From NCBI GenBank assembly GCA_963665275.2, contig CAXXIN010000007.1, positions 64,001-128,000 of the forward strand: DNA of 64,000 nt. The letters run 5' to 3'. The notes below the pieces were generated by a model. It was not told where the DNA came from, did not search any database, and was given only the letters and a program-made list of their open reading frames with translations. A program made the position numbers and the translations under genes. The DNA is from Negativicutes bacterium (GTDB taxonomy: Bacteria; Bacillota; Negativicutes; UBA1444). This document shows positions 44,922 to 64,000 of the stretch, in pieces (the first letter of the stretch is position 1; every line of letters starts with the position of its first letter).

Positions 44922-46283
44922 TCATGAACCCATCAAAAGGGATCCTACCTGTTCTATGTAGCGGGCGATGTTAAATTTCCTTTTGAGCCCCTTGTCGTTC
45001 ATATAGCGGATTTTGCCAAAAATTGGCCGTTCGCCCCAGGCGCGATCATGCACTCCGCCGATGCTCCAGGCGATCCCCGCGTAGCCGTTCGGATCGCGTC
45101 CATCCAATTCATATTTGTCATTCAGGTAAATGGCGGTTTTCATCGCAGCCGAGGGATTAGCCGACCATTCCAGAATTTTTTTCGCCCAATACATCCGCAT
45201 ATACCCGTGCATTTTGCCGGTAACCAGCAGTTGCCGCTGCGCAGCGTTCCAGATCACGTCATGGGTGCGGGCCTGCTCGAATTCCTCGCGGCTATAGACA
45301 TATTCCCGGACATCGTCCAGATGTTCCGCCAGCGTTTGCTGGGCCCAGGCATGAAAACCACCCGGGTCATCATAGCGGGAATTGTAAAAGCAGAAGTTAT
45401 CGGCCAGTTCTCGCCGGACAAAGAGTTCTTCGAGGAAGGATTCAGTGGCAGGCGTTTTTTCAACCCGGCGCAAAATGTTGATCATCACCCTCTGAGCAGA
45501 GAGCTGTCCGAAGTGCAAATAAGGGGAGAGCTGAGACTGCCTATCTTGGGTGGGGTCATTGCTTAGCGTGTCGTAAAAAGGCAGACTGTTCTCGATGAAC
45601 GAACTGAGACGACCCATGGCCGCCACACTTCCCGGTGTCAGCCAGGAAACCTCCCTGACGCTGTGATCAATCTTCAACGAGGCAAGCAATGACTCAATCT
45701 CCGGGAAAGGTTCCACGGCAATTCCCGGGTAGGGATGCGACAGGACTTCAGGGAACTCCTGCAAGAATTCGGGAAGCAGCCTGTTGAGTTTGGGACGAAG
45801 AGTGTAGGCGGCAAATTCGGCTTTCGGAGAAGCAACCCAACAGGGAACGATATTGTGGGCATCGACTTCATGGCAAGGGATATCGATAGCGGCGAGCACT
45901 TGGGCTTTCCATTCCTGCTTGATTCGCAGCGGATCAAAATCAGTGACGAGCAGCCCAGCTTGCTGCTGCGAAAGCCACCGGGGAATAGTTTCATGCGGCT
46001 GCCCCCGCAGCAGAGTGCAGGAAATATGCTTCAGTCCGAGCGCGGCAAAGGTTGCCGACAGCCCGCGCAGCATGAACCCATATTGGCGCACGGTGGCCTC
46101 CAGAAAATCCGGCACGAGGCAAAAGATGACCTGAAGCGGTTGCTTGCTTTCCAGTGCAAGTTGCTGGGCATGGTGCAGCGCCCAGTTGTCCTCGGCGCGT
46201 TGATCCCGGCTCATCCAGTAGACAACCGGCCCAACGGTGGTTGGGGAGCTGTTTTTGAGGATGCGAAAACGCTGTTTGTTCAT
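44922..46283 (-). CDS. phr: Class II CPD photolyase
   Basis: YWMSRDQRAEDNWAL, SQLSPYLHFGQ, RRELADNFC, KMHGYMRMYWAKKILEW and DGRDPNGY. Confidence 0.92.
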   Translation of the reverse strand: MNKQRFRILKNSSPTTVGPVVYWMSRDQRAEDNWALHHAQQLALESKQPLQVIFCLVPDFLEATVRQYGFMLRGLSATFAALGLKHISCTLLRGQPHETIPRWLSQQQAGLLVTDFDPLRIKQEWKAQVLAAIDIPCHEVDAHNIVPCWVASPKAEFAAYTLRPKLNRLLPEFLQEFPEVLSHPYPGIAVEPFPEIESLLASLKIDHSVREVSWLTPGSVAAMGRLSSFIENSLPFYDTLSNDPTQDRQSQLSPYLHFGQLSAQRVMINILRRVEKTPATESFLEELFVRRELADNFCFYNSRYDDPGGFHAWAQQTLAEHLDDVREYVYSREEFEQARTHDVIWNAAQRQLLVTGKMHGYMRMYWAKKILEWSANPSAAMKTAIYLNDKYELDGRDPNGYAGIAWSIGGVHDRAWGERPIFGKIRYMNDKGLKRKFNIARYIEQVGSLLMGS

Positions 46284-48002: not shown

Positions 48003-49106
48003 CTACATAGCCATCTTGTTAAGCTCAACTACAGCGTCTTCGCCAAATACGCGTACGATTTCGACAGTAGGATAATCATGCAGATCAACGACTATTTTTT
48101 TGCCGAAGGGGGTGCGGTTCTTATCCAACATCAAGCGAAGCACAGGCCGATTCTGCATGCCATAAAACACCTTGGTCACAACGCCGATCTGGCCGCTCGA
48201 CAATTCAACCACACTCCCGATCGAATAGATGGCAACTCGTGTGAGAAATGCCGTTAGCACTTCCACATCAAACTGTTTGCCCATTCCTTCGGCCAAGAGC
48301 ATTGCCGCCTCATGCGGAAACAGACCTCGATGATAAGGACGGTCGGAAGTTACAGCATCGTAGACATCAGCAACCGCAACAATTTTAGAATACTCGTGGA
48401 TCTCTGCGCTCACTATTTGACGGGGATAACCGGTTCCGTCCGGTTTTTCCTGGTGCTGAAACGCCATAAGGATCGACTTTCGGGAAATGATATGAGACGC
48501 AGTGTTTCGCAAAATTTCATATCCAAGTTCCGCGTGCGTCTGCATGATCTTGTATTCATCGGCGGTCAATTTTGCGGGCTTGTTCAATATATCCGTCGTA
48601 ATTTTCATTTTCCCCACATCATGGAGCAACCCGCCCAAAGCAATTTCGAGAAGCTTTGTTCGGGGGTATTTCAGCGCAACACCGATTAAGACGCAGAGAA
48701 CCGAAACATTGACCGAATGTCCAAAAGTGAATTCATTGTGTGAGCGAATATCAGTCAACTGCACCATCGCTTGAGCGTTGGTCCCTACCTCATCGACAAT
48801 TTTCTCCGCAAGGGTGACAAATTGCGCCGGGTTCCATCTACGATTCTCCCGAATAGCCAGAAACTGCTGTTGAACCGCCTGAATAAGCTTGACACGGGAA
48901 TTTTCAGAAATGATTTCAGGAGGAATGGCATCTTCGAAATAGGGGTTACGAACATATACAGAAAGTATACTGAAGTGAGCCAGCCGTTCAATATATCTCT
49001 GCGTCAGTTCAACATCTTCACCAATTAGGACGCGGCCATCTGCACTGAAAATATTCTTTGCAGTTACCATTCCCGGGCACAAGTGGGTCAGTGGAATCCG
49101 TTGCAC
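48003..49106 (-). CDS. HD-GYP domain c-di-NMP phosphodiesterase
   Basis: HSVNV, LLHDVGK, HQEKPDGTGYP and VADVYDAVTSDRPY; GTG 49106 follows AAGGTG. Confidence 0.88.
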   Translation of the reverse strand: MQRIPLTHLCPGMVTAKNIFSADGRVLIGEDVELTQRYIERLAHFSILSVYVRNPYFEDAIPPEIISENSRVKLIQAVQQQFLAIRENRRWNPAQFVTLAEKIVDEVGTNAQAMVQLTDIRSHNEFTFGHSVNVSVLCVLIGVALKYPRTKLLEIALGGLLHDVGKMKITTDILNKPAKLTADEYKIMQTHAELGYEILRNTASHIISRKSILMAFQHQEKPDGTGYPRQIVSAEIHEYSKIVAVADVYDAVTSDRPYHRGLFPHEAAMLLAEGMGKQFDVEVLTAFLTRVAIYSIGSVVELSSGQIGVVTKVFYGMQNRPVLRLMLDKNRTPFGKKIVVDLHDYPTVEIVRVFGEDAVVELNKMAM

Positions 49107-49282
49107 AGCCAAATCACCTTTCATTTCGAGCGGACGACATCCATCAAGGGATTTTCCGATATCTATATATTCCCCTCCGGGCTAAATATTCCTTCCGTAT
49201 AATTTAAATAAAAAAAGTATTTGACGTTAATCTTACAAGGCGCCGTAGACACGCAGAATGATTCAAATATTCCACCGCCGGT

Positions 49283-49314
49283 ACTACAATCCACGCGCCC
49301 GCACAGGGCGCGAG
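49283..49314 (-). repeat. Solitary degenerate CRISPR repeat (26/32 identical to array repeat)
   Basis: Plus strand ACTACAATCCACGCGCCCGCACAGGGCGCGAG vs GTTTCAATCCACGCGCCCGCATGGGGCGCGAC; 7-bp stem intact. Confidence 0.85.
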
Positions 49315-49359
49315 GTATAACCATGTTTAGAAATCCGCGATAGATATGTAAGTCACACT

Positions 49360-51414
49360 TTAAGCCTTGGAGTACCGGCGCCTGAACAGTTCCCCGCTAT
49401 CAGTAATTCGTGTTCCCTGTCGACCGACTCCACTTTCCAGGAACCCGGCATTTGTCAATTTGGCGATCCGGCTGCGCAAGGCCTGTTCGGTGATCGCAGG
49501 ATGCTGCAATTGCAGATGATCGCATAGGCTTGAGCGGCCTATGCGTATTTTTTTTTGACCAGCTTCCGCGAAAACATTCAATATACTGATGTATAAGGTA
49601 ATATCCTCTGGTTGCAAGTCGATCGGGAATACGGCCGAACTCGCACGGCGATTATGGATTCGGCTAAAAACAGCTTTTTTGAATGCTGAGGGACTGTCGC
49701 TGATCACACCCGCATACTGAATAACATTGGATAACTCTCTGATGTTTCCCGGCCAGGAGTAGCGCCGCAAACAATCCAGCAATTCACTATCAATGCAGTT
49801 CCGGACTATATGGTATTCCTGCATAATGCTTTCCAGCAGAGCCGGGATATCTTCAGGACGGTCACGCAGCGGCGGTATATATAACGGAGCAACAAAAAGG
49901 CGATAAAACAAGTCTTGACGAAATTGGCCCTTTTCCACCATATCCTGCAAATCCTTATTGGTCGCCGCAATGATTCGAATATTGACGGGAATTACCCGCC
50001 CGCCACCGATCCGCATGAGCGCTCTTTCCTGAATGACTCGCAATAGCTTAGTCTGCGCCTCCAATGTGATATCGCCGATTTCATCCAGAAAAAGGGTTCC
50101 TTTGTCCGCCTGCTCAATCAGGCCCGACTTTCCCCCTTTTTTGGCTCCAGTAAATGCGCCATCCTCATAGCCGAACAATTCGCTTTCCAATAGCGTGGGA
50201 GACAATGCTGCGCAATTGACGGCGATAAACGGACCGCTTGCGCGCGGGGAATCGCTGTGGATCGAATGCGCAAACAGTTCTTTTCCCGTACCGTTCTCGC
50301 CATGAATCAGCACATTGAGATCACTGCCGGCTAGTTTGGCGGCAACGCCAATCACTTCTTTAATTGTTGACGAATCCCCTACAATGTGGTCAAAAGTATA
50401 TTGCGCGACGTAACCCCGCTTGCGCAGCGCCTGCCTCACTTCGGTTTCCATGCGCAGCACTTCCGTAACATTCCGCAGAGTGACAATCGCACTGATCTGC
50501 TGTCCTTCTACGTCTTCCAATGTCTGTATATCAACGTGGTAAGCCTGCTCCGCGATGGTAACGACACTTTTGTCCGGCTGCCACTCATATTCAAAAGATA
50601 TTGCCTCCTGCAACTCGGGGATGAGTTGTTGGAGCGGCTGTCCAATAACCTGACTCGACTGAAGCCCAAGGAATGCCTGGGCGGTATCATTGAGAAACCG
50701 GATGATAAAATCGGCATCAACAACGATCAAACAATCTGTTACGTTATTCAACACCACGCTCAACTGGCGATTGAGCAAATCGATGGATTTTGCGGATTTC
50801 AACATTCGTTGGCTGCGGTGGACAATTTCCTGCAAATACTGAATACTGATGGGAATATTCGTCTTCAGCGGCTCATTCAATTCATGAGCCAGTGCAACCA
50901 AGCTGGACAGTTCAATTTCGCGCACACCCAAATCGATGACTTTCGTCGCCCACGCGGGTATTTGTTCCGGTTCATCAAAAAGCAGGATCGTCGTAATGGA
51001 TGCACAGAGGTCATAATCATCGGTCAAAAACGAATGGATGGAAAAATGGGAAAATCCGATTTCTCCGAGTGTTTCCAATGCCTCCGTCGTGCCAATGGCA
51101 GTCTTCGTAACAAGCAGTGTCTTGCAACCCGCCGGCAACTCTACCAATTGATCAATAACGTCCAGTCGCAACGTGCGGTTTGCAATAAGCAGCGGAACCG
51201 TCGGATGGATAAAAGGGCTTAGCACTTCTCGCACAGCATTACAGGAAAGGAGCGCCAAATCAGCCATAATGGGAGAGCGTGGATTGTGGCGCAACTCATC
51301 GAACCAGTAGGGAGTTACCTCGATCGCATCGTTTGAAAACACCTGCCGGATCTGTTCTGCCATCACCTGACTGGACTTCTTTCCCGTTGCCAAAACCGCA
51401 ATGGATTTTTGCAT
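49360..51414 (-). CDS. Sigma54-dependent transcriptional activator (PAS + AAA+)
   Basis: GENGTGKE, ESELFGY..GAFTGA, LFLDEIG, RIIAATN, FRQDLFYRL and WPGNIREL; PAS-like segment; start at ATG 51414. Confidence 0.92.
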   Translation of the reverse strand: MQKSIAVLATGKKSSQVMAEQIRQVFSNDAIEVTPYWFDELRHNPRSPIMADLALLSCNAVREVLSPFIHPTVPLLIANRTLRLDVIDQLVELPAGCKTLLVTKTAIGTTEALETLGEIGFSHFSIHSFLTDDYDLCASITTILLFDEPEQIPAWATKVIDLGVREIELSSLVALAHELNEPLKTNIPISIQYLQEIVHRSQRMLKSAKSIDLLNRQLSVVLNNVTDCLIVVDADFIIRFLNDTAQAFLGLQSSQVIGQPLQQLIPELQEAISFEYEWQPDKSVVTIAEQAYHVDIQTLEDVEGQQISAIVTLRNVTEVLRMETEVRQALRKRGYVAQYTFDHIVGDSSTIKEVIGVAAKLAGSDLNVLIHGENGTGKELFAHSIHSDSPRASGPFIAVNCAALSPTLLESELFGYEDGAFTGAKKGGKSGLIEQADKGTLFLDEIGDITLEAQTKLLRVIQERALMRIGGGRVIPVNIRIIAATNKDLQDMVEKGQFRQDLFYRLFVAPLYIPPLRDRPEDIPALLESIMQEYHIVRNCIDSELLDCLRRYSWPGNIRELSNVIQYAGVISDSPSAFKKAVFSRIHNRRASSAVFPIDLQPEDITLYISILNVFAEAGQKKIRIGRSSLCDHLQLQHPAITEQALRSRIAKLTNAGFLESGVGRQGTRITDSGELFRRRYSKA

Positions 51415-51684
51415 CTTACAGTTCCTCCCGCTTATCCATAGCTTATCGTTACCGGCTGATTGCATTTATCCTATCACTTTGCTGTCAAAAATCAAAGCTA
51501 ACAGGTTGGCAAACATACACAATCGCACTAAAAACCAACCCGTAAACAAACCAGTTAACGAACCACCAGTCTTTCTTTCGGCAAATTATTACATCGTCCG
51601 CGGTTCGCAACGAAATTCCTCAGAAGCCAAATACCGGCTTCTCCTGTTGCTCGAGTCCAGATAACACGCTCCCCACGATAGGGT

Positions 51685-51784: not shown

Positions 51785-51825
51785 TATAGTACATCTGCGA
51801 TACACAAAAAAGGGAGGGATTGTCT

Positions 51826-52923
51826 ATGGACTCAGTATTCAAAGAACGGTACGAGAGAATTTTGAAAGGTATGCAACAGCAATGGGATGGCATCATTTTA
51901 TGGCCCTCGGCCAACCTCTTTTATTTCACCGGCTATGCGCCCAAACCGGACGAACGCCTGCAAATCGCCATCATTCCCGCATCAGGCAACCCCGTGTTCA
52001 TCGTGCCGAAACTGTATGCCAATCAGGCAAGACAAGACTGCTGGATTGCGGATCAACGCGACTGGCGCGATGGCGATGACCTGTACGCTTTGGTAGCGGA
52101 CATCATGGAAGAACTGGGCTTACGGCAGGGAAAATTGGCAATGGATGATACTATGGGCTTCATGCAGGCCGATCCTTTTCTCAAAGCCTGTCCCAAAGGC
52201 GTCATAGGACTGGCCAGCTCAGTATTCACGCCGTTGCGCAACATAAAAGATGCGGCTGAAATCAGCTTGATGAAACAGTCTGGAATTCTCAGCGACGAAG
52301 TCATGCCGCTCGCCCTCGCTGCTTGCGCCGAAGGAAAAACCGAATTGGAAATCAAGGATTTGGTGGAAGTGGAACTGAAAAAGCGCGGTATGGCCGGCCC
52401 CTTCAGCAATTTGATCGCTTCAGGCCCCAACAGCGCCAATCCCCATCATATCTCAGGCGGACGCATTCCCACTACCGGCGATATGGTCTTTTTGGATCTC
52501 GGCGGCGCTTACAAGAAATATTGGTCCGATATTACACGCACCGTTTGCATCGGCCGACCTTCGGATAAAATGCGCGAGGCCTACAAACAAGTGCAGGAAG
52601 CCCAGGCAATGGCCAAGGCGGCGGTCAGACCCGGCGTAGTGGCTGAAGACGTACATGCCATAGCATACAATCATTTGGCCAAGAAAGGCCTGGAAAAATA
52701 TTTCATTCACCGCACCGGGCATGGGATGGGGCTGGACGGTCATGAGCTGCCTTCCATCAACATCGGCAATAAAATGGTGCTGGAACCCGGGATGACTTTT
52801 TCCGTCGAACCGGGAGTCTATTTCCCCGGCGAATTCGGTATCCGCATCGAAGACAGTGTCGTTGTGACCGAAAGCGGCCATCAATCATTCAATCATTTTC
52901 AGCACGACTTAATCTGCTTATAA
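51826..52923 (+). CDS. M24-family (Xaa-Pro peptidase/creatinase fold) hydrolase
   Basis: NLFYFTGY, LRNIKD..EI, NPHH, DLGG..YWSDITRT, HRTGHGMG..HE, SVEPG and GIRIED. Confidence 0.9.
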   Translation: MDSVFKERYERILKGMQQQWDGIILWPSANLFYFTGYAPKPDERLQIAIIPASGNPVFIVPKLYANQARQDCWIADQRDWRDGDDLYALVADIMEELGLRQGKLAMDDTMGFMQADPFLKACPKGVIGLASSVFTPLRNIKDAAEISLMKQSGILSDEVMPLALAACAEGKTELEIKDLVEVELKKRGMAGPFSNLIASGPNSANPHHISGGRIPTTGDMVFLDLGGAYKKYWSDITRTVCIGRPSDKMREAYKQVQEAQAMAKAAVRPGVVAEDVHAIAYNHLAKKGLEKYFIHRTGHGMGLDGHELPSINIGNKMVLEPGMTFSVEPGVYFPGEFGIRIEDSVVVTESGHQSFNHFQHDLICL

Positions 52924-52942
52924 TTTTGAAGGAGGCGCCAAC

Positions 52943-54259
52943 ATGAAATTCATCACCAAATGGTTGGTTAACTTAGTAAGCCGATATCTACCGGACGATT
53001 ACATCCTGGCTTTGGGAATGACTTTGCTGGTATTTGGCGCAGCGCTATTCTGGACTCCTTCCAGCGCCCTCTCTCTAGTGGATTATTGGGGCAAAGGGGT
53101 GGTCAGCCTTTATGGATTTACGACACAAATCATTTTGATCCTGATCACGGGACACGTTTTGGCCAATACAAAACAGGTCAAGAAAATCTTGACGACCATC
53201 AGCGTCTGGCCCAAAACTCCGGAGCAGGCAGTCATGTTCACCGCCGCGATCTCCTACCTTTTATCCTTTCTTAACTGGGGCCTCGGCATGATCGGAGGGG
53301 CCATCTTGGCGCGAAAAGTGGCTACCAACAACCGCGGTACCCACTACCCCATACTCGTAGCCGCAGTGTACGGCGGCACACTTGCCCGCGGTTTTTCCGC
53401 TTCCATCCCTTTGGTTGTAGCTACACCGGGGCATTTCCTGGAGAAAGTGATGGGTGTCATTCCTGTCAGTCAGACCTTGTTTTCTCCACTCAACTGGTTC
53501 ATCGACATCGGCGTTGGAATCCTGTTGGTGCTGACCATGCGATACATGATGCCACCCACCAACGAAGTCATCGGCATTTCGGACAAATTGATCAAAGAAG
53601 ATGAAAAAGTGGAAGAAATACCGGAAATCCTGACTCCGGCCGACCGCTTCAACAACAACAGCATTGCCAGTTATGTCGTGGGAATTTTCGGGTTGGTTTA
53701 TGTCGCCAACTATTTTATGAAAGTTAAGACTTTTAACATCAATATTGACATTGTCATCATTTTCTTTCTAGTTTTGGGCTTCCTGCTGTTCGGCAACCCG
53801 ATGCGATATAAAACCGCATTCTACAATGGGGCCAAAAGTGTAGGCCCCGTATTGCTGCAATTCCCCATATATGCAGGCATGATGGGAATTATGCAACACT
53901 CCGGCCTTACGAACGTCATATCCCAATGGTTCATAAATTGCTCAACGCCCCATAGTTTTCCCTTGATGACTTTTTTAAGTTCTGGCCTGGTCAACATAGC
54001 AATCCCTTCCGGCGGCGGAATATGGGCTGTACAGGGGCCAATCATGATGAAAGCGGCTGAAAAACTGGGCGCCGATATGGGAACGACCTTAATCGCGTTT
54101 ACCTGGGGCGAAGCTTGGACGAATCAAATTCAACCGTTTTGGGCACTGCCAATATTGGCGGTTGCCGGGTTGGGAATCAAGGATATCATGGGCTACTGTG
54201 CAGGTTTCACCATCATTTCCGGCCTGTTCATCGGCATCGTATTAGCTATTGTCGGGTAA
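52943..54259 (+). CDS. Short-chain fatty acid transporter (AtoE/TIGR00366 family)
   Basis: RYLPD, LNWG, HYPILVA, LQFPIYAGMMG, PSGGG.WAVQGP and WTNQIQPFWALP. Confidence 0.88.
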   Translation: MKFITKWLVNLVSRYLPDDYILALGMTLLVFGAALFWTPSSALSLVDYWGKGVVSLYGFTTQIILILITGHVLANTKQVKKILTTISVWPKTPEQAVMFTAAISYLLSFLNWGLGMIGGAILARKVATNNRGTHYPILVAAVYGGTLARGFSASIPLVVATPGHFLEKVMGVIPVSQTLFSPLNWFIDIGVGILLVLTMRYMMPPTNEVIGISDKLIKEDEKVEEIPEILTPADRFNNNSIASYVVGIFGLVYVANYFMKVKTFNINIDIVIIFFLVLGFLLFGNPMRYKTAFYNGAKSVGPVLLQFPIYAGMMGIMQHSGLTNVISQWFINCSTPHSFPLMTFLSSGLVNIAIPSGGGIWAVQGPIMMKAAEKLGADMGTTLIAFTWGEAWTNQIQPFWALPILAVAGLGIKDIMGYCAGFTIISGLFIGIVLAIVG

Positions 54260-54313: not shown

Positions 54314-54413
54314 CGTTATTTGCAACAGCAGATACTTTCTTGGTCGAGAATGGTTAAATCTGGAATACTCGACCCGTCGAGTTTTGGCAATGTAATATTC
54401 AAATATTTGCTCC

Positions 54414-57400
54414 AAAATAAAAGTCGCGCCCGCATGGGGCGCGAAGTGATGGAACGTCCGGGCGCTTATGAAATAAGGAGTTTCAATCCACGCGCCCCGC
54501 ACGGGGCGCGACCTACGTGCCGATGTATGGATCTGTGGCCATCTTGGTTTCAATCCACGCGCCCATAGAAATTTTTGCTTCACGACCATTGTTTCAATCC
54601 ACGTGTCCGCATGGGGCGCGACAACGGAACGGAAGTCTATCATTTCCCAACCAGCGTTTCAATCCACGCGCCCGCATGGGGCGCGACGTTGATAACAGCA
54701 TCAGCATAGCGCCCTTGATCGTTTCAATCCACGCGCCCGCATGGGGCGCGACACCCTGCCAGCGCCAATGTCCCCGTCAGGACGCTTGTTTCAATCCACG
54801 CGCCCGCATGGGGCGCGACGTATTTGGCATGCCGGCTAGATTATGCCCGAAGTTTCAATCCACGCGCCCGCATGGGGCGCGACCTTTCGTTCCACTGTAA
54901 CGCGGCGAACAGCGAAGTTTCAATCCACGCGCCCGCATGGGGCGCGACTTTCTAACGGGGGCAGGGCGTAGATAACGCTGGGTTTCAATCCACGCGCCCG
55001 CATGGGGCGCGACCTCATTTTCGAGTTTTTGAGAATTTGCGTATTGGTTTCAATCCACGCGCCCGCATGGGGCGCGACTGCAGTCTCGGCTGCACGATCA
55101 TGGTTTGAATTGTTTCAATCCACGCGCCCGCATGGGGCGCGACGAGCTTTTTAGAGCAGATTTCACACCGCCGGAGTTTCAATCCACGCGCCCGCATGGG
55201 GCGCGACGCGGCGAGAACGGCATCTACGGTTGCCCAAAAGTTTCAATCCACGCGCCCGCATGGGGCGCGACGATTAGAAGTAAGAAAATTGCGATCCATT
55301 GCCGGTTTCAATCCACGCGCCCGCATGGGGCGCGACCTTCCCGTACTGACTTGCGCTGTAGCCGTTCAAGTTTCAATCCACGCGCCCGCATGGGGCGCGA
55401 CATACGATCCACGATGAACCAACCACCCGAAACACGTTTCAATCCACGCGCCCGCATGGGGCGCGACGCGAAAGGCTAGGCAAGACGGAAAAAGGCTATC
55501 GCGTTTCAATCCACGCGCCCGCATGGGGCGCGACCCATCGGATAGTCGCGAAAGGAACGATTGACGAGTTTCAATCCACGCGCCCGCATGGGGCGCGACG
55601 ATTAGAAGTAAGAAAATTGCGATCCATTGCCGGTTTCAATCCACGCGCCCGCATGGGGCGCGACGAAATCGCTCTTTGATTCGATCCTTCTCATGCTTGT
55701 TTCAATCCACGCGCCCGCATGGGGCGCGACAATCGCGGCTTGCGAGGCAAATCGTACTGCTAGTTTCAATCCACGCGCCCGCATGGGGCGCGACACTCTT
55801 TCTCGGCTTCTTTTTGGTCAAGCCCGAGGTTTCAATCCACGCGCCCGCATGGGGCGCGACAGCAGCAGGCGGTGGAAGATGCGAAGAAAGACCAGTTTCA
55901 ATCCACGCGCCCGCATGGGGCGCGACTTGCTGGGTGTGGATGAGCAGGAGATACCGACGTTTCAATCCACGCGCCCGCATGGGGCGCGACCAAAAAACAT
56001 CAAAGAGGTGGAGAGCCGGGGCGATGTTTCAATCCACGCGCCCGCATGGGGCGCGACCTAGTTTTGCGGCTTCGTAAATGTTCATTTTGTGTTTCAATCC
56101 ACGCGCCCGCATGGGGCGCGACGCGAATATGCGTCATGTTTGGATCCTTTACCAGTTTCAATCCACGCGCCCGCATGGGGCGCGACCGGAGGAAATCAGA
56201 AAGCTGCTGGGAGGAGGTGAGTTTCAATCCACGCGCCCGCATGGGGCGCGACGGTACTCGTTGATATACGGGATAGACCCAGACGTTTCAATCCACGCGC
56301 CCGCATGGGGCGCGACATGGAAAGACTGCGAATTGCGGGGGTGGAAACGGTTTCAATCCACGCGCCCGCATGGGGCGCGACCATGAGGAGGTATTTAAAA
56401 ATGCAATTGAGTAATGTTTCAATCCACGCGCCCGCATGGGGCGCGACTACGATTGTTGGCGAATTGCACATTACCCCCGAGGTTTCAATCCACGCGCCCG
56501 CATGGGGCGCGACACATACCGATAACCATGCAAACGAGGATGATGATGTTTCAATCCACGCGCCCGCATGGGGCGCGACGCCGGGGCAAAGTTACCGCCA
56601 AGCGTGTGACGAGTTTCAATCCACGCGCCCGCATGGGGCGCGACGAACCGTTGTTTCTACCGATTGTTCGAGTCGTTTGTTTCAATCCACGCGCCCGCAT
56701 GGGGCGCGACTGGTCGCTACGGCGATTCGTTTCAGGTCATTCAGTTTCAATCCACGCGCCCGCATGGGGCGCGACCAGGGTTGTATCGCAGCGATTGGCG
56801 CGAGAACAGTTTCAATCCACGCGCCCGCATGGGGCGCGACTGCCTTTTTTTGTGCGCTGTTTAGGGTTCCCCATGTTTCAATCCACGCGCCCGCATGGGG
56901 CGCGACTTGCAAGGCGGCGAATCTTTTGCACAACCGTATGTTTCAATCCACGCGCCCGCATGGGGCGCGACTTCAATAGCCGCCCTTGCATTAAAAACTT
57001 CGGGGTTTCAATCCACGCGCCCGCATGGGGCGCGACCTGACAGGTCTGACGGAGACATTCAAACTGTTGTTTCAATCCACGCGCCCGCATGGGGCGCGAC
57101 CCGCCGTTGGGGACCGTTGGCGTGGGCCACGATGTTTCAATCCACGCGCCCGCATGGGGCGCGACAACCGAAGGGCATATTTTGGCAGCGAGTGCATAGT
57201 TTCAATCCACGCGCCCGCATGGGGCGCGACGGGCGGTAGTGCTGGCCTGCCAGACCCCGCGCGTTTCAATCCACGCGCCCGCATGGGGCGCGACAATAAT
57301 CGATATCCTGATATTCGGCTTGGTATAGTTTCAATCCACGCGCCCGCATGGGGCGCGACTGTTGCAGGATCCGGGCTGATAAAGCTACACCCGTTTCAAT

Positions 57401-57884
57401 CCACGCGCCCGCATGGGGCGCGACTCTTTGACTTTGTTAATGAGAGGCCCCTCGATCGTGTTTCAATCCACGCGCCCGCATGGGGCGCGACGATCACCGC
57501 CGCGTCATCTTCCCATCCGTACATGTTTCAATCCACGCGCCCGCATGGGGCGCGACACCTTTTGTTTTTTGTATGAATATGCGGACTTGGTTTCAATCCA
57601 CGCGCCCGCATGGGGCGCGACTGATCAGAGAAACACTATTCAACTTTAAGGGCGTGTTTCAATCCACGCGCCCGCATGGGGCGCGACGCCAGAACGATTG
57701 AGGCGCAGATTATTGCCGAAACGTTTCAATCCACGCGCCCGCATGGGGCGCGACAAAATGTTCGACGTTCAGGTAAATGGCGGATTGTTTCAATCCACGC
57801 GCCCGCATGGGGCGCGACTGGGGTATGCCCAGCTTAAGGACCGACCCAACCGGTTTCAATCCACGCGCCCGCATGGGGCGCGAC
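54414..57884 (-). CRISPR. Type I-C-like CRISPR array: 54 repeat units (4 degenerate at the trailer), 53 spacers mostly 32-35 nt; repeat GTCGCGCCCCATGCGGGCGCGTGGATTGAAAC
   Basis: Directly visible 32-nt repeats ending ATTGAAAC on the minus strand; degenerate units at the left end, leader and cas2 at the right end; counted by hand. Confidence 0.98.
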
Positions 57885-58052
57885 AGTCTTTTTAGAACCA
57901 TAGAAAAATCATGCATTCCCACACATGATTTCGCGAACCCACTAAACCCAATCTTCCAAACTCTACGAAATTTCCTATTAACTTCCCGAATCCAGCTGTT
58001 TTCCAGCCGTGCGAACTTCCCCCCGGCAAAACTTGTTCGCTTGGAGTTCGCA
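57885..58052 (-). promoter_or_regulatory. CRISPR leader
   Basis: 168-nt non-coding region between the cas2 stop and the first repeat, with four GCGAAC/GTTCGC copies. Confidence 0.8.
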
Positions 58053-58343
58053 CTACATCAGCAACAAGCCTTCCGGGTCATAACCGCCCTTCGCGCCAGC
58101 ATGTTCCACGCGACTCTTCCAATTATTCCCCAGGAAATAATACCGCAGACTATCCGTCTCAGGATCAATGATACTCTCCAAACGATGCTTTAACTCCGCA
58201 AACTGAGTCGGATCTACCAAACATTCAAACACAGAGTTTTGCACTCGCTGCCCATAATTCACACATTGTTTGGCGACTTTGCGCAGCCGCGTCTTGCCAG
58301 TTTCCGTCGTCACGCTCACATCGTACGTGATCAACACCATCAT
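58053..58343 (-). CDS. cas2: CRISPR-associated endonuclease Cas2
   Basis: VLITYDV, RLRKVAKQC..YGQRVQNSVFEC and DSLRYY. Confidence 0.96.
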   Translation of the reverse strand: MMVLITYDVSVTTETGKTRLRKVAKQCVNYGQRVQNSVFECLVDPTQFAELKHRLESIIDPETDSLRYYFLGNNWKSRVEHAGAKGGYDPEGLLLM

Positions 58344-58352
58344 TTTATCACC

Positions 58353-59384
58353 TCATTTCCAGAAAAACGGCGGATAATCTTCCAGATCGCCACGCATATG
58401 TCGTGCCATTAACAAAGCCTGAGCATAGGGCACCAAGCCCAAAGGTATCTTTTCTTCCAGATATGGATGCGTGATTTCTTCCTGCTTGCGTTTTTGCCAA
58501 GCAGTTAAAACTTCTTTGCGCGTATCGTCTTCCATAATCACCGCCTCGTTCTCTTTAACGACGAAGCCTTTTCCCGAAATCTGCTTCCGATTGATTAGCG
58601 TCAGCGCCAACCTGTCGGCGAAATGCGGTCGCAATTCTTCCATGAGATCCAGCGCCAAACTCGAACGTCCCGGTCGATCACGATGCAAAAAACCCACCTG
58701 CGGGTCCAAGCCGACACTTTCCAGCGCCGCAGTCACTTCATGCGCCAGTAGCGTGTATAAAAACGACAACAACGCATTCACCGGATCAGTCGGCGGCCTA
58801 CGATTACGATTATTCAGGCAAAACGTTTCTTTTTGCGCCAATATCATTTGATTGAAATTTGCAAAATACGCCCCAGCAGCTTCTCCTTCGATTCCTCGAA
58901 TCACGTCGCCTGTATGCGCTTGCTCCAAACGAGGCATCATGCCTGCCATTAACTCCATCGCCCGTTCCACCGGAGCAGCCTCCACCACATCCGCATGATC
59001 CCGCAACGCCCGATGCAACAGCGCCCGGCTATTGAGAATTTTAGCCGCGATGAAACGACGGGACAGTCGGGTCGAGATTTTCACATCATCAGCCCAACGA
59101 TACTGGGTACGCCGCAGCAACACATTACCGGATACTTTTCCTGTCACACGTCCCATGAATTTACCGAACTCAGTCAAAAAAGAAATCGCAACGCCTCTAT
59201 CGCAGCACAGCTTCATAAGTTTTGGCGACGCACCAGAAAACCCGAAACAAACGATCCCTTCCAAATTATGAACCGGAACGCGAAATTTTACTTCATTCTG
59301 CAATTTGATTAGCACATTCTCGCCATCACAGGCAAGGTACGAATCCGGCAACGTAACATAAAGAGTGTTCAACAGGCGTCTCAA
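58353..59384 (-). CDS. cas1: CRISPR-associated endonuclease Cas1 (I-C type)
   Basis: LLNTLYVT, GNVLLRRTQY, RGIEG, RRPPTDPVNALLSFLY, GFLHRDRPGR.SLALDLMEE and YPPFFWK. Confidence 0.96.
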   Translation of the reverse strand: MRRLLNTLYVTLPDSYLACDGENVLIKLQNEVKFRVPVHNLEGIVCFGFSGASPKLMKLCCDRGVAISFLTEFGKFMGRVTGKVSGNVLLRRTQYRWADDVKISTRLSRRFIAAKILNSRALLHRALRDHADVVEAAPVERAMELMAGMMPRLEQAHTGDVIRGIEGEAAGAYFANFNQMILAQKETFCLNNRNRRPPTDPVNALLSFLYTLLAHEVTAALESVGLDPQVGFLHRDRPGRSSLALDLMEELRPHFADRLALTLINRKQISGKGFVVKENEAVIMEDDTRKEVLTAWQKRKQEEITHPYLEEKIPLGLVPYAQALLMARHMRGDLEDYPPFFWK

Positions 59385-60064
59385 TCACCCACCTCCACAC
59401 GACACATTCGAGCCAAATAGTTGCTCACAGACCGATGCTTCAACATCCATTGCGGCTGGCACTCCTCAACCAAAGAACATTGGGAACAGTGTTTTCCTTT
59501 GGGAGCTTTCGGCGTGATCCCGCTCCGCAGCAGCTCATGGATTCGCAGTGCCAATTCCGTAGTATGGCAGCGCAATTTTTCATCGATCGCCACGGCTTCG
59601 CGCCGCTTGATCTGTGCGTAAAACAGAAATCCTTCCGCAATCGACACACCCATCATTTCTTCCAATGCCATCGCCTGCGCGCAGAGCTGGACCGCATCCC
59701 GGTCATCCGATTTGGGTTTGCCCCGCTTGTATTCCACCGGAACCGGTCGCCACCACCCTTGCCGATCTTTTAGCCTGCACGTTACCCCCTCGATGGCAGC
59801 TTCACTTTGGTAAAATTCCACCACATCAGCTACACCCCGCAGGCCAAGCCGTTGGGATATGAGAGGCATGCTCCGCACAATCCGCAAACTTTTCCGACTC
59901 TCGTCAAAAAACGGATCGTCAGCGCGCTCGTGCAGGTGCTTTCCTTCCACCGTCCGCACATTCTCAGCCCATACCTGTTCCACATGAATGAGTGCCCACT
60001 GCCGCTCACAAAAGGCCATATGCTGGATTCCTGAAAGTAGCAACAGGTCGTCGTCAGCAAACAT
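59381..60064 (-). CDS. cas4: CRISPR-associated Cas4
   Basis: LSGIQHMAFCERQWALIH, GVADVVE, PVEYKRG, QLCAQ and CSQCSLVEEC. Confidence 0.95.
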   Translation of the reverse strand: MFADDDLLLLSGIQHMAFCERQWALIHVEQVWAENVRTVEGKHLHERADDPFFDESRKSLRIVRSMPLISQRLGLRGVADVVEFYQSEAAIEGVTCRLKDRQGWWRPVPVEYKRGKPKSDDRDAVQLCAQAMALEEMMGVSIAEGFLFYAQIKRREAVAIDEKLRCHTTELALRIHELLRSGITPKAPKGKHCSQCSLVEECQPQWMLKHRSVSNYLARMCRVEVGD

Positions 60065-60084
60065 TTTTTACATCCTTTTTATTG

Positions 60085-62271
60085 TTACACAATTAGAACT
60101 TCATCACTTGAGTGTTGCCGCCAATCAATTCCATTTAAAATACCGTGCATATATCCAAGAAAGTTATCATATTGATTTGGCAATAACACAGGGAGTTCAG
60201 TTATTTCAACACCTAGCGTCTTTACAACGAATCGTCGTAAATTAACGCTACCTCTTTGCAATTCGCGTGAAGAAACCTGCTCACCCATACTGATTTTTTT
60301 TGCAACTTCTTGATCGGCTAGAACAGTTATTGTATCGTCTTCGATTATTCGAAACTTCTCAGCGACATCGACAAAAGCACACTGTTTGTCAAGTTTGCAG
60401 ATTTCTTCCGGCAATCCGCCTAATTCCTTACACTCCATATCGAAGCCTTCAGTGACTGCAACAGTAATGGTCTGGCTAGTTAATACCCCTGAGTCAATCT
60501 GTTTAAGAAATACGGAACGCGGAATATCAAACAGAGGATTCCGTTGAAAGCCAGCATCAGCTATTGTAAAACAAAGCAGGGTTCCATCTCTATATTCACC
60601 GTTTCGACTGACTCGCCCGCTAAGCTGCCAACAGCTTTGTAATGATCGTAGTTCACAAAATCCATAATGAAATGAAAAATCCATTCCACATTCAACACAA
60701 CTTGTAGCAATCAGCGTCCAGTTTTCGTTGAAGCCAAAATCAGGATTTAATCTACGCTTTACTTCGTCAATAACGCCTTCTCTATCACCTGGCGTCAACG
60801 CCGTTGAGAGGTGAAGAACCTCATGCCCCTCCTCGCGCATTGTTTTGGCAAGAAAGGCAGCTGACCGAACAGTGTCCATAACGACAAGGCGTGAACCTGA
60901 AAAACTTGTGACAAAATCAATCAATTTGGAGACGCTTTCAAAATGCGGCGGTTGAGTTGCCATTATATTGATGGCAACTCTATTTTTTTCATATTCATTC
61001 AATTCACACGAAAGGTCTGAAGAAAGAATTGGTATAACTGAACGTGACGATACTTTCTGGAAAATCGGGTTTCCCCAAAACTTAATGGACGTACCAGAGC
61101 ATAAACAAAAATGGCAACCCCATTGCTCCGTTAATTCTACAATCCATTTCCAGGCTGGAGGCATAAGTAGTGCGGGTAAAGCTGCATGACTTTCATCCAT
61201 GACAATTCCACATCCTGGCAATTGATGAAGTTTTCGCAGCTTTGACGGAATATTGCTTGCCAACGTCTCAAAGAACTGAACAGCAGTAGTTACAATAATA
61301 GGTGCAGACCAAGTTGATGCCAGATGTCGTAATTCGATGTTTTCGAAATCAGCTTGATGATGATGTTCAGCGACTATTGAAGCAGGGTCTTCGCCTTCAA
61401 GAACAATAGCTTCACGTAACACAGCAACAGTCTGCGAGATAATATTTGTAAACGGCAGAACAATAATAATGTGCCGCAGATTATGTGCAATCGCTTTTTG
61501 CAACATATGCGCCACGACAGCGGTTGTTTTGCCAGTTCCGACGGGACTGTCGCAATATACTAGGGCCTCATTGACATTCGCCTCTTCGCAACACTGAAAC
61601 ATTTTTTGCCTAAGCCGATTCCGTTTCGTAGTTGGAGCACCCGCCTGCAAATCATTAACATATTGCTTGAGTCGCTGCAAACGTTTAGCCCAAAGAGTAA
61701 GTGGCAAAACAGCTTTTTCTGCCGACGAATCAGAATAATCAGCATCTACAAGGCAACTTAGCATCATCCGGTATTCCATTGAAGAGATCTTTGATATTTG
61801 CGATAAACCTAATTTTACTCCCTGTATTTCCTCGTTATGCAGTCGCAAATATTCAGTTATGCAAGCATTCGTTTGTTCCTTGACGTCTGTGTTGCGAAAA
61901 GGGTTCGCCTTCAACCTTTCTTCCATCAGATTGGGAAGACCTGGGCGATGATGCGAATAAATCAAGGTTGCAGAAATTTTATTCTGACAATCCTCAAACA
62001 AATATTTACTTCCAGCATCGCGATGGTCAACAGGCAACCGTTTCGCTTTTTTCACACCACAAAGCACAGCTTGATTTAAACTATCAAGCTTTCCCAAGTC
62101 GTGAAACATTGCTGCACCGGCTACCAAAGAACGATAGCTGTCATGCTTTTCATTCAATGCAAATGGTAAAACGGCCTCTATATTTTCACATGAGTTTTCA
62201 AACACCCCAGTCACATGATCATGATAGGACTGGGATGGTTGCCCGTTTCTGGCGCTGTGTGCCAATAACAT
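60085..62271 (-). CDS. cas3: CRISPR-associated helicase/nuclease Cas3 (HD + SF2), 728 aa
   Basis: LAHS..YHDH, FHDLGK, LVDADYSD, PVGTGKT, MDESH, TSCVECGMD and QLSGRVSRNG. Confidence 0.9.
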   Translation of the reverse strand: MLLAHSARNGQPSQSYHDHVTGVFENSCENIEAVLPFALNEKHDSYRSLVAGAAMFHDLGKLDSLNQAVLCGVKKAKRLPVDHRDAGSKYLFEDCQNKISATLIYSHHRPGLPNLMEERLKANPFRNTDVKEQTNACITEYLRLHNEEIQGVKLGLSQISKISSMEYRMMLSCLVDADYSDSSAEKAVLPLTLWAKRLQRLKQYVNDLQAGAPTTKRNRLRQKMFQCCEEANVNEALVYCDSPVGTGKTTAVVAHMLQKAIAHNLRHIIIVLPFTNIISQTVAVLREAIVLEGEDPASIVAEHHHQADFENIELRHLASTWSAPIIVTTAVQFFETLASNIPSKLRKLHQLPGCGIVMDESHAALPALLMPPAWKWIVELTEQWGCHFCLCSGTSIKFWGNPIFQKVSSRSVIPILSSDLSCELNEYEKNRVAINIMATQPPHFESVSKLIDFVTSFSGSRLVVMDTVRSAAFLAKTMREEGHEVLHLSTALTPGDREGVIDEVKRRLNPDFGFNENWTLIATSCVECGMDFSFHYGFCELRSLQSCWQLSGRVSRNGEYRDGTLLCFTIADAGFQRNPLFDIPRSVFLKQIDSGVLTSQTITVAVTEGFDMECKELGGLPEEICKLDKQCAFVDVAEKFRIIEDDTITVLADQEVAKKISMGEQVSSRELQRGSVNLRRFVVKTLGVEITELPVLLPNQYDNFLGYMHGILNGIDWRQHSSDEVLIV

Positions 62272-63146
62272 TACATCTGATCCATCAGATCGATAATCGG
62301 TGATGCTTTATCTTTCAATAGCCCGTTGTTCAGCTTGCCAATATTTTCGGTTAGCACTTCTTCATTGTAATCCTTCCATGAAGTTGCCGCTCCTACTGCC
62401 CCGCCGATACGTTGTGGCATCAACGCTTCGATCATTTTAAAGTCGCTGAAAGTACCACGCGCACGATTATGTTCCGTATAAAACGCGTGACGAACATTCA
62501 CTTGGGATCGTATATAAGACGCAGTTTCCGAATAGGCATGAGGAATCAACTTAAAGAGCAAATCAATATCCTTTTTCGTGCAATGCGTTTTGTACGCCGC
62601 TGTAGCGTTGATGAAAAATGGCATAGCATACAAACCATAGGACACAATTCTAAATGCAAGTGGAGCCATTCCTTTGCTCTTGTCATCTTCAACCGGAAGG
62701 ATTTTTGTGGTAGTCATACGCTCGATTTTTACGGGATCAAGCGAAACACCCAATCCGAACTGAACTACGCCGGTCGTTATGAAAGATTTTGCTTCGTCAG
62801 TCTGTTCCTCAAGAAACGTTGTTCCAAAGACGCGAACATCCCAATATTTCGCAGTTATTTCATCAGGTGACATAACCTTAACATCAGTTCGTTTTGTATC
62901 TTTACTTTCCAAAACATCAAAGCCTTGATTGGGTAGCTTAAGCTCTTGGGCGATATCTTTCCAAAATGGCGATTCCTTTTCCGACACCAAATCACGCAGT
63001 TTTCTTTTGAAGGACACCGGGGAAATTTCACCGCGACCATCTTGGCGAGTACGCGGATCACTTTCACGGTCGGGATCACCGTTGGGATTTGAACTGATGG
63101 CTTCGATCAGCAGTAAACCCGTTCCTCTGTTGATTTGTTCAGTCAT
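62271..63146 (-). CDS. cas7: Divergent Cas7 (Csd2/Csh2-related) backbone protein
   Basis: NPNGDPD..PR, SFKRKLRD, WDVRVFG and TGVVQFG; start at ATG 63146 after GAAGGAGG; TAATG coupling to cas3. Confidence 0.85.
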   Translation of the reverse strand: MTEQINRGTGLLLIEAISSNPNGDPDRESDPRTRQDGRGEISPVSFKRKLRDLVSEKESPFWKDIAQELKLPNQGFDVLESKDTKRTDVKVMSPDEITAKYWDVRVFGTTFLEEQTDEAKSFITTGVVQFGLGVSLDPVKIERMTTTKILPVEDDKSKGMAPLAFRIVSYGLYAMPFFINATAAYKTHCTKKDIDLLFKLIPHAYSETASYIRSQVNVRHAFYTEHNRARGTFSDFKMIEALMPQRIGGAVGAATSWKDYNEEVLTENIGKLNNGLLKDKASPIIDLMDQM

Positions 63147-63537
63147 GATTTTCATCCTCCTTCTTTTCATAAGGGATCGCAGCCAAGTAGCCCAATAGCA
63201 CTTGCGCCTGTTCTGCTGGAGAAAATGTTTCAGACAGTTCATTTGCTGAGATTTTTAAACTGACTTCCGAGAACCGCGCAAGAATCCATTTTGCCAGCCC
63301 TGCTCCCTCACCTGTTGATGTATCTGCCCAAGCCAAATAGATTTTCATGCGATCTCTTAAGCGGAGAACTCCTTCCACAGGATTTTCCGAGGCTATCGCC
63401 AACATTTCATTTCCCATAAGTTGAGTCGGCAGCGGCTTTTTTTCGTTTCCTCCGTTACGCACTTGCACACAGTACTGCTTATGCAGCATATCTGCAAGCT
63501 TAAGAAACTGACCCACATTAAACGGTGCATCCAACAT
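63139..63537 (-). CDS. Putative internally translated small subunit Cas11 (132 aa)
   Basis: In-frame ATG at 63537 preceded by AGAAAGGAG-AAGTAC inside the cas8-like frame. Confidence 0.6.
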   Translation of the reverse strand: MLDAPFNVGQFLKLADMLHKQYCVQVRNGGNEKKPLPTQLMGNEMLAIASENPVEGVLRLRDRMKIYLAWADTSTGEGAGLAKWILARFSEVSLKISANELSETFSPAEQAQVLLGYLAAIPYEKKEDENHD

Positions 63538-64000
63538 GTACTTCTCCTTTCTGACGCCAAGACGCCATAACAAAATTGAGATGAGGGAAATGAACATACA
63601 TAAGTTTTTAATCTGCTTGGAAAATGCCTCTGAAGCATTTAATGGATACGGGAATTGAGCGATTATTTGTTGACCAATATCTCCCAACAGCCCTTGGACT
63701 TTCCAAACCGATTTTTGGATGAAATTAGAAAGCAAATCGGAGTCTGAGAACTCCGTCTCGGACTGTGGCATATACAACCGATAAACTTCATGGAGAGAAA
63801 CAGCACTTTGTTTGAGCGGTTTCGCTGAACCAGAACGAGTGTAATGCAATTTCATAATTTGAAGAATTTCATTGGGACCGGGACATATCGGTTTATATTC
63901 TCGAATACCGGTTTTATCTTTAACACGAATACTTATCGGCGGACAGTTTTTTGATTCATCCGACCATGCAAGCAAGTTGTTACAAAAATTCTGTACCGAA
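63139..64000 (-). CDS. Putative Cascade large subunit (Cas8-like), 5'-truncated by window edge
   Basis: Open frame to the edge, immediately upstream of and overlapping cas7; C-terminal PFNVGQFL..EQAQVLLGY resembles the Cas8c/Cas11 helical tail. Confidence 0.6.
   Translation of the reverse strand, partial: SVQNFCNNLLAWSDESKNCPPISIRVKDKTGIREYKPICPGPNEILQIMKLHYTRSGSAKPLKQSAVSLHEVYRLYMPQSETEFSDSDLLSNFIQKSVWKVQGLLGDIGQQIIAQFPYPLNASEAFSKQIKNLCMFISLISILLWRLGVRKEKYMLDAPFNVGQFLKLADMLHKQYCVQVRNGGNEKKPLPTQLMGNEMLAIASENPVEGVLRLRDRMKIYLAWADTSTGEGAGLAKWILARFSEVSLKISANELSETFSPAEQAQVLLGYLAAIPYEKKEDENHD

Follow-up and report, generated by a model that had tools for sequence, protein, structure and literature searches.

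The stretch of DNA analyzed here (the window) is 64,000 nucleotides (nt) of contig CAXXIN010000007.1 from a Negativicutes bacterium (GenBank assembly GCA_963665275.2, positions 64,001 to 128,000 of the forward strand). It carries a CRISPR array together with most of a cas operon. A solitary copy of the array repeat, the orphan repeat, is located at 49283–49314 on the minus strand. This repeat was probably the terminal one in a type I-C array that formerly bordered the conserved sequence upstream of an HD-GYP gene, and, left stranded, it would be a scar of CRISPR locus reshuffling. The orphan repeat lies only 13 nt from a synteny breakpoint, and the same breakpoint carries a cas3 pseudogene fusion in a sister lineage.

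The orphan repeat belongs to the array repeat family

On the minus strand (49314–49283) the orphan repeat reads CTCGCGCCCTGTGCGGGCGCGTGGATTGTAGT, and the array repeat on the same strand reads GTCGCGCCCCATGCGGGCGCGTGGATTGAAAC. The two are identical at 26 of 32 positions. The six substitutions are at repeat positions 1, 10, 11, 29, 31 and 32, that is, only in the loop and at the ends, and the 7-bp stem and the TGGATTG that follows it are unchanged. All of this agrees with an earlier interpretation of the same DNA made from its letters alone (the sequence-only reading). The orphan repeat shares an exact run of 17 nt with the array repeat, to be compared with the match of at least 16 nt that Shmakov et al. 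(bioRxiv 10.1101/2023.03.03.530964) use as a criterion. It is also 26/32 identical, as counted by eye, to the I-C repeat of G005, a genome of the same genus.

The predicted fold (49294–49312, minus) shows an intact 7-bp G+C stem and a 5-nt loop. The stem is made of repeat positions 3–9 and 15–21 (window 49312–49294). The predicted energy is −15.3 kcal/mol for the orphan repeat and −14.3 kcal/mol for the array repeat. With its 2-nt 5′ overhang and 11-nt 3′ overhang, the orphan repeat has the same architecture that is reported to be shared by I-C repeats (PMC8524198).

We scanned the whole assembly (3.97 Mb in 20 contigs) for the repeat, allowing up to 8 substitutions. There are 52 matches, all on one strand of the contig that holds the window (contig C7 of G000, the present genome). 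They include 50 perfect repeats, one repeat with two mismatches and the orphan repeat, which is the sole copy outside the array. The dispersal over the genome that a generic repeat would show, a point raised in the sequence-only reading, is not seen. Since only 3.1e-4 matches of at least 26/32 are expected by chance in the genome, and a single ectopic copy is present among the 52, the orphan repeat genuinely belongs to the repeat family, as its one ectopic copy. Both a dispersed repeat and a match by chance can be set aside.

The array is transcribed from the minus strand, and the orphan repeat shares its orientation, 5,110 nt away from the last half-repeat of the array (54425). It follows the stop codon of a sigma-54-dependent activator gene by 45 nt, as described before. 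The distance to the HD-GYP gene is shorter than the earlier estimate of about 175 nt and measures 158 nt to the first ATG of the open reading frame (ORF). No promoter-like or terminator-like site was called in the 45-nt gap between the activator stop and the repeat (49315–49359, minus), and a promoter and terminator scan of 48900–49600 found no relevant site around the repeat on the minus strand. An Rfam search of 48800–49800 with E ≤ 10 returned only a spurious long non-coding RNA match.

A synteny breakpoint next to the repeat carries a cas3 stub in a sister lineage

Downstream of the breakpoint is a conserved block whose first gene encodes the HD-GYP-type (HD_5) phosphohydrolase (48003–49124, minus). 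When metagenomes were searched with this protein, 168 of 237 candidate stretches were confirmed as relatives. Among the best 80 of these 168, only L035 (96%) and L036 (68%) are more than 40% identical to the protein. L036 has just 93 nt upstream of its HD-GYP gene. In L035, the gene is identical at 1049 of 1122 nt (93.5%, with 96% amino acid identity) and the downstream ORFs are syntenic. The conservation extends into the upstream region (49125–49269, minus), which L035 matches only from TATTTGAATCATTC on, from 49269 down to 49125, with 126 of 141 aligned positions identical and 4 identical bases in front. Upstream of this junction L035 has no repeat and no sigma-54 activator gene. In the window, the breakpoint is separated from the orphan repeat by the 13 nt ACCGGCGGTGGAA (49270–49282, minus), as defined by the L035 alignment.

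Up to the junction, nt 1–327 of L035 align to nt 8–335 of the full-length cas3 of G005 (227/331 columns, 7 gaps). The stretch is a frameshifted stub of a canonical I-C cas3, corresponding to its first ~110 codons, fused to the HD-GYP upstream block. Its readable frame of 90 amino acids (aa) is 69% identical to residues 1–72 of G005 Cas3. The same frame matches the cas3_HD family TIGR01596 with E 7.5e-10 and 39.1 bits, which is under the cut-off of 43.45, and Pfam Cas3_HD with E 1e-3. The Cas3 fragment matched 3 of the 13 family genomes, and G000 is not among these; in a protein comparison with the Cas3 of the window only the HD motif aligned (E 0.62). A decayed repeat copy in L035 was considered and rejected, as the alignments are no better than shuffles (p = 0.35–0.48) and the stretch is cas3 coding sequence.

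Because cas3 is the first gene of a canonical I-C locus and the array closes it, L035 looks like the product of one deletion, reaching from about nt 336 of cas3 to just past the terminal repeat. This assumes that the I-C locus lay directly upstream of the HD-GYP block and in the same orientation. Such a deletion yields the L035 structure exactly, and would place the last repeat of the lost array where the orphan repeat lies.

Two further observations concern the sequence around the breakpoint. Counted by eye, the ~100 nt upstream of the HD-GYP start (49125–49222, minus, beginning at a T-run) show 5 differences from L035. This near-invariant stretch has no Rfam match and may be a conserved promoter or 5′ untranslated region (UTR) element. 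The 11-mer AATATTTGAAT has 7 copies in the genome, on both strands, including 49261–49271 and 54397–54407 (both minus). One copy spans the orphan breakpoint, with the L035 junction inside, and one lies 17 nt after the last half-repeat of the array. A gapped alignment of the array trailer flank with the orphan flank gave a weak p = 0.067. The 11-mer may mark a site of recombination or a trailer duplication, or its placement may be coincidental.

The three-gene module between the repeat and the array

Three genes lie between the orphan repeat and the array. The sigma-54-dependent activator, with PAS, AAA+ and HTH domains, forms one end of this module (49360–51465, minus), and the rest consists of the genes for an M24 peptidase and a short-chain fatty acid (SCFA) transporter (51820–54259, plus), as assigned by domains. 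Another genome of the genus, G006, carries the transporter, peptidase and activator on its contig C362 at 82–87% DNA identity (82% for the activator). The homology ends at the stop codons on both sides, including the stop codon of the transporter. Unrelated sequence follows the activator stop in G006, where only 29 nt are present before the contig end, and the genome has no close copy of the HD-GYP region. By this comparison the SCFA-M24-sigma54 module is a separate, self-contained conserved unit. The seat of the repeat, where the module meets the HD-GYP block, is specific to this lineage, because the module homology in G006 stops at the stop codons and a close HD-GYP copy is absent from G006.

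The 16-nt core of the repeat, with at most 1 mismatch, is found in 4 of the 12 genomes of the genus (G000, G005, G006 and G009), and in G005 it is present as an array. G006 has an orphan I-C repeat of its own (L016, G006:C710, 3190–3221, minus) with 1 mismatch to the G005 repeat. It adjoins a fragment of a transposase (HTH_Tnp_1) and a sequence that is repeated several times in G000. The flanks of the G006 repeat show no significant similarity to the flank of the window orphan, to the array trailer or to the leader, and neither do the 80 nt upstream of the window orphan to the leader (p = 0.22–0.997 across comparisons). In G009 the single 1-mismatch match lies in a locus (L015) whose counterpart in G000 is an unremarkable part of contig C4; the locus has no match to the CRISPR region, and the hit was taken as a chance match.

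The CRISPR array and the cas operon

The whole array spans 54425–57884. Its transcription on the minus strand proceeds from a leader (57885–58052) adjoining cas2. The leader is conserved with that of the G005 I-C array; their local alignment score of 59 was reached by 0 of 3000 shuffles. The main body of the array (54623–57884, minus) contains the 50 perfect 32-nt repeats. An identical repeat-spacer-repeat unit is present twice, at 55239–55336 and 55567–55664, which indicates internal duplication of one spacer. The leader-distal end (54425–54622, minus) decays stepwise. It consists of a repeat with two mismatches, both in the stem (54591–54622), a truncated repeat of 18 nt (54547–54564), a 33-nt repeat with G at loop position 11 and one extra G (54480–54512), and a terminal half-repeat (54425–54444). 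The half-repeat retains only the hairpin. Together with the CTTTTATTTT that follows (54414–54444, minus) it scores as intrinsic-terminator-like, and this decayed half-repeat may serve as the array's own terminator.

A search for self-targeting spacers (51 queries) gave only short matches at chance level. The best one is between a leader-proximal spacer (57758–57786) and a photolyase gene (45111–45139), 4 kb beyond the orphan repeat. It has an exact run of 16 nt and 24/29 identical positions overall, with E 0.013 for one of 51 queries, which is about the chance level.

By family profiles, the region 58053–64000 (minus) holds cas2, cas1, cas4, cas3, cas7 and the 3′ part of cas8. The cas8 and cas5 genes run past the window to C7:129848 (G000:C7:127139–129848, L115), and cas5 (C7:129228–129848) and most of cas8 are outside the window. 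The order of the resident operon is cas5-cas8-cas7-cas3-cas4-cas1-cas2, while the canonical I-C order in G005 is cas3-cas5-cas8c-cas7-cas4-cas1-cas2-array. The resident Cas1 is a type I-C Cas1c (494.6 bits, cut-off 385). Cas5 scores only 42 bits against Cas5d (cut-off 85) and Cas7 109 bits against Csd2 (cut-off 182), and Cas8 (698 aa) has no NCBIfam family match and no tblastn match to G005 Cas8c. Cas4, Cas1 and Cas2 are 79, 85 and 89% identical to the G005 proteins, whereas Cas3, Cas5 and Cas7 are only 28, 26 and 24% identical. These two levels of identity, together with the unmatched Cas8 and the different gene order, show that the resident cas locus is a chimera. Its effector may be a divergent I-C-like variant.

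Origin of the orphan repeat

We propose that a type I-C array once ended directly before the HD-GYP upstream block, and that the orphan repeat would be the last repeat of that array, followed by 13 nt of its trailer. A DNA rearrangement would have severed this terminal repeat from the rest of the CRISPR locus. In the present lineage the three-gene module would have come to lie between the orphan repeat and the present array. In the sister lineage a single deletion would have removed everything from codon ~110 of cas3 to 13 nt past the repeat. Two routes could lead to the present arrangement. Either the module was inserted where the trailer of the present array ends, or a canonical locus that existed earlier was lost, with the chimeric locus (re)acquired at a distance of 5 kb. 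Of the three options named in the sequence-only reading, the evidence favors the one in which an insertion stranded an old array end, although in a wider form. The stranded array end agrees with the breakpoint 13 nt away, with the L035 cas3 fusion and with a 3′ decay like that in G005. The self-contained module, the recombination recorded in the chimeric cas locus, the second orphan repeat beside a transposase fragment in G006 and the lack of any sign of a guide also speak for it. As to the insertion, we make no choice between the present array and survival from an earlier canonical locus, since the orphan repeat is 26/32 identical to both repeat types.

Several points weigh against this origin. 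We infer the ancestral arrangement, as well as the lack of function of the repeat, and the arrangement itself was not observed. The breakpoint on the HD-GYP side rests on one relative (L035), and the module on one (G006). The junction is also not a one-off. Strains of ~95% identity from two other metagenomes span the region without indels (X5 record 13, 49036–49422, 19 differences; X7 record 28, 49276–49551, 10 differences), so the arrangement is common to close strains, and X2 is identical. Of the relatives, in which the sequence-only reading proposed to check conservation, these strains carry the region and L035 lacks the repeat. The best argument for a function is the stem. Had the six substitutions fallen randomly along the repeat, none of them would hit any of the 14 stem positions with p = 0.020, and both the stem and U22-G24 would be spared with p = 0.0055. 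Two of the trailer repeats inside the array have stem damage and the orphan repeat has none. This stem-sparing pattern could reflect selection on the hairpin.

The intact stem needs no selection on the orphan repeat, because the loop variants already exist in working repeats and the remaining changes resemble the end decay of terminal repeats. The G at loop position 11 is also present in the trailer repeat 54480–54512 and in the G005 repeats. The 26-nt core of the orphan repeat is the exact array repeat of a Paracidovorax genome, with 4 regularly spaced copies, and is also found in Delftia and Olsenella records. The loop differences are therefore within the variation of working I-C repeats, and they may predate the stranding. 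The other changes are confined to position 1 and the last four positions, and the terminal repeat of G005 is itself changed at positions 1, 5 and 27–32. The six changes therefore should not each be counted as a separate event of decay. Over 27 nt, the core has roughly one change of its own, the T at position 10. With the adjacent block differing by about 10% between the window and L035, this is no less than expected.

The sequence following the repeat

The sequence-only reading had noted a 32-nt segment and then a weak repeat-like sequence after the orphan repeat, and had named a regulatory mini-guide as one option. The two were examined as a candidate spacer and second repeat. Of the 32 nt, only the first 13 are not HD-GYP upstream sequence. 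The second repeat, GTCTACGGCGCC, does not hold up. It matches at 11/32, a score that is reached by 15.9% of window positions outside the array, and it falls in a block that is also present in the repeat-less relative L035. A search for a partner repeat over spacer lengths of 28–39 gave 12/32 at best. Because the L035 upstream match starts at 49269, the remainder of the "spacer" and the "second repeat" are ordinary HD-GYP upstream sequence.

The guide tested against the genome was the 32-nt segment ACCGGCGG..., with the type-I seed defined as positions 1–5 and 7–11. There is no site in the genome with a perfect 10/10 seed next to the protospacer adjacent motif (PAM) TTC. Nine TTC sites have at least 9/10 seed positions, compared with a mean of 4.0 (standard deviation 3.2, maximum 13) in 30 shuffles. 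All nine are inside open frames of at least 100 codons, and none is upstream of cas5 or in a promoter. TTC was scanned separately, and TTA is covered only by the count of seed-perfect sites with any PAM, which is 7 in the genome versus about 7.6 expected from genome size. Three TTC sites match at least 11 of the first 12 positions, against a mean of 0.2 in mononucleotide shuffles. We put this excess down to coding k-mer bias, because all three are inside ORFs and contain the glycine-codon-like run GGCGGTGG. The PAM-flanked partial matches anticipated in the sequence-only reading, especially in the cas promoter, were found neither above chance in the genome nor in that promoter. At the 3′ end, the last 7 nt of the repeat are TTGTAGT in the orphan and TTGAAAC in the array (4/7 identical); the handle is unchanged over its first 7 nt. 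The orphan repeat is not a mini-array, and nothing that we found indicates a function.

Alternative explanations

The orphan repeat could be a Cas5-processing site in the 3′ UTR of the sigma-54 activator, cut at 49294|49293. The cut would leave a protective 3′ hairpin on the mRNA or separate the HD-GYP message, and expression of the activator or of the cyclic di-GMP (c-di-GMP) gene would be coupled to Cas5 levels. Such a link of CRISPR to activator mRNA or c-di-GMP was another option of the sequence-only reading. The location fits: the repeat follows the stop codon by 45 nt, shares the coding strand and has no terminator-like site called before it. BhaCas5c is reported to rely mainly on the stem base and U22-G23-G24 and to tolerate changes in the pentaloop and the 5′ overhang (PMC8524198). 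The stem, the stem base and U22-G23-G24 are intact in the orphan repeat, and its changes are in the loop, the 5′ overhang and the last 4 nt. If transcribed, it may be a competent Cas5 substrate with cleavage between 49294 and 49293 and a 5′ end at 49293, the end anticipated in the sequence-only reading. The assembly (92.6% complete) gave no Cas6 (PF01881) match, which leaves Cas5 as the likely enzyme for processing, and the stem-sparing pattern (p = 0.02) points in the same direction. However, the resident Cas5 scores well below the Cas5d cut-off and is distant from the solved Cas5c structures (best E 2.4e-7), and its catalytic residues are not clearly conserved. In addition, L035 keeps an HD-GYP upstream block of ~90% identity without the repeat or the activator gene, so HD-GYP expression is independent of the repeat, and the activator of G006 is followed by unrelated sequence in the 29 nt assembled there. 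We consider a dedicated processing site unlikely. Cas5 cutting of a read-through activator transcript would be incidental rather than a regulatory link.

The same hairpin could act without Cas proteins, as a 3′-end stabilizer or weak terminator of the activator mRNA. The stem is strong (−15.3 kcal/mol) and comes 45 nt behind the stop codon, and the terminator-like half-repeat and T-run at the array end suggest that repeat hairpins are usable in this way. In the orphan, however, the hairpin is followed by TGGATTGTAGT, which has no T-run and was not called terminator-like, and the predicted folding of the complete 241-nt intergenic RNA is not better than that of shuffled sequences (z = 0.24), which makes such an exaptation quite improbable. 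The mini-guide of the sequence-only reading fares worse and is extremely unlikely. As a guide of the CreA/CreR/crlRNA type, resembling a CRISPR RNA (crRNA), the 11-nt handle followed by ACCGGCGG... would direct Cascade to repress a promoter through partial pairing. Solitary I-C repeat units with a single repeat-like element are indeed reported to make crlRNAs of 48–50 nt (bioRxiv 10.1101/2024.12.27.630466), and the orphan retains the hairpin and the beginning of the handle. But there is no second repeat, no promoter-like site upstream of the repeat on its strand, and no PAM-flanked target above chance, and the near-seed TTC sites are all in ORFs. No more than 13 nt of the guide are particular to this arrangement, the 3′-end 7 nt of the repeat match at 4/7, and the repeat is neither inside nor beside the cas operon and is absent from L035. 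A retained function could also combine these elements. The repeat would lie in the activator 3′ UTR, a cut by the divergent Cas5 would set the mRNA 3′ end, and the handle-bearing RNA, with its 13-nt unique seed, would load Cascade. This too is decidedly unlikely. The orphan repeat as a stranded terminal repeat is still the preferred explanation.

Comparison with known systems

The closest known case is a repeat remnant of a lost or rearranged CRISPR locus, and the orphan repeat would be another instance. According to Shmakov et al. (bioRxiv 10.1101/2023.03.03.530964), a degenerate last repeat and a solitary repeat unit are left in those Francisella genomes from which the V-A locus is missing. 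Similar to what is described for these remnants, the window has a single repeat-family copy at the edge of a former locus, with a match of at least 16 nt (here 17 nt exact), and relatives show alternative states of the same site. Unlike in Francisella, the window still has an array and a cas operon that look functional at a distance of 5.1 kb, beyond three unrelated genes, and the sister lineage keeps a cas3 stub in place of the repeat. CRISPR arrays can end in degenerate terminal repeats. The orphan repeat resembles these, for example the last repeat of G005, in that it is changed at position 1 and in the last 4–6 positions and keeps the core, but it is located 5.1 kb from the array.

Type I-C solitary repeat units ('CRISIS') are described as making crlRNAs that repress promoters of defence genes, and functional units are recognized there by their conserved 3′-terminal 7 nt (bioRxiv 10.1101/2024.12.27.630466). 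CreTA/CreR mini-arrays offer a related regulatory comparison (PMC9458426). In common with both as described, the orphan repeat is of the I-C family, has an intact hairpin, is a single copy outside the array and has the strand needed for an 11-nt handle. It differs in that it has no PAM-flanked partial target and matches at only 4/7 in the 3′-terminal 7 nt. It differs further in lying 5.1 kb beyond the trailer and outside the cas operon, and in being absent from L035, the one resolving relative. RNA anti-CRISPRs (Racrs) are reported as solitary repeats on phages (PMC10651486). The orphan repeat is likewise a solitary repeat that mimics the host repeat, but it is chromosomal and lies between conserved housekeeping-type genes. 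Its 26-nt core had 0 exact matches in a viral contig collection, and it is not classed as a phage Racr.

Implications

If the repeat were retained for a function, it would tie the abundance of the CRISPR effector to a sigma-54/c-di-GMP node far from the cas operon, and Cas-dependent RNA processing would extend to an ordinary regulatory mRNA outside the CRISPR locus. The analysis also gives a caution for screens of solitary repeat units. A hairpin and a plausible 32-nt "spacer" do not suffice unless a target is present, the handle is conserved and relatives keep the unit. As a relic, the orphan repeat is mainly a dated marker of CRISPR locus reshuffling. Three states are seen around one site: the orphan repeat and the module in the present genome, the cas3 stub on the same flank in the sister lineage, and the chimeric operon 5 kb away. 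Taken together, they suggest a CRISPR locus that was deleted, split and partly replaced at a fixed position.

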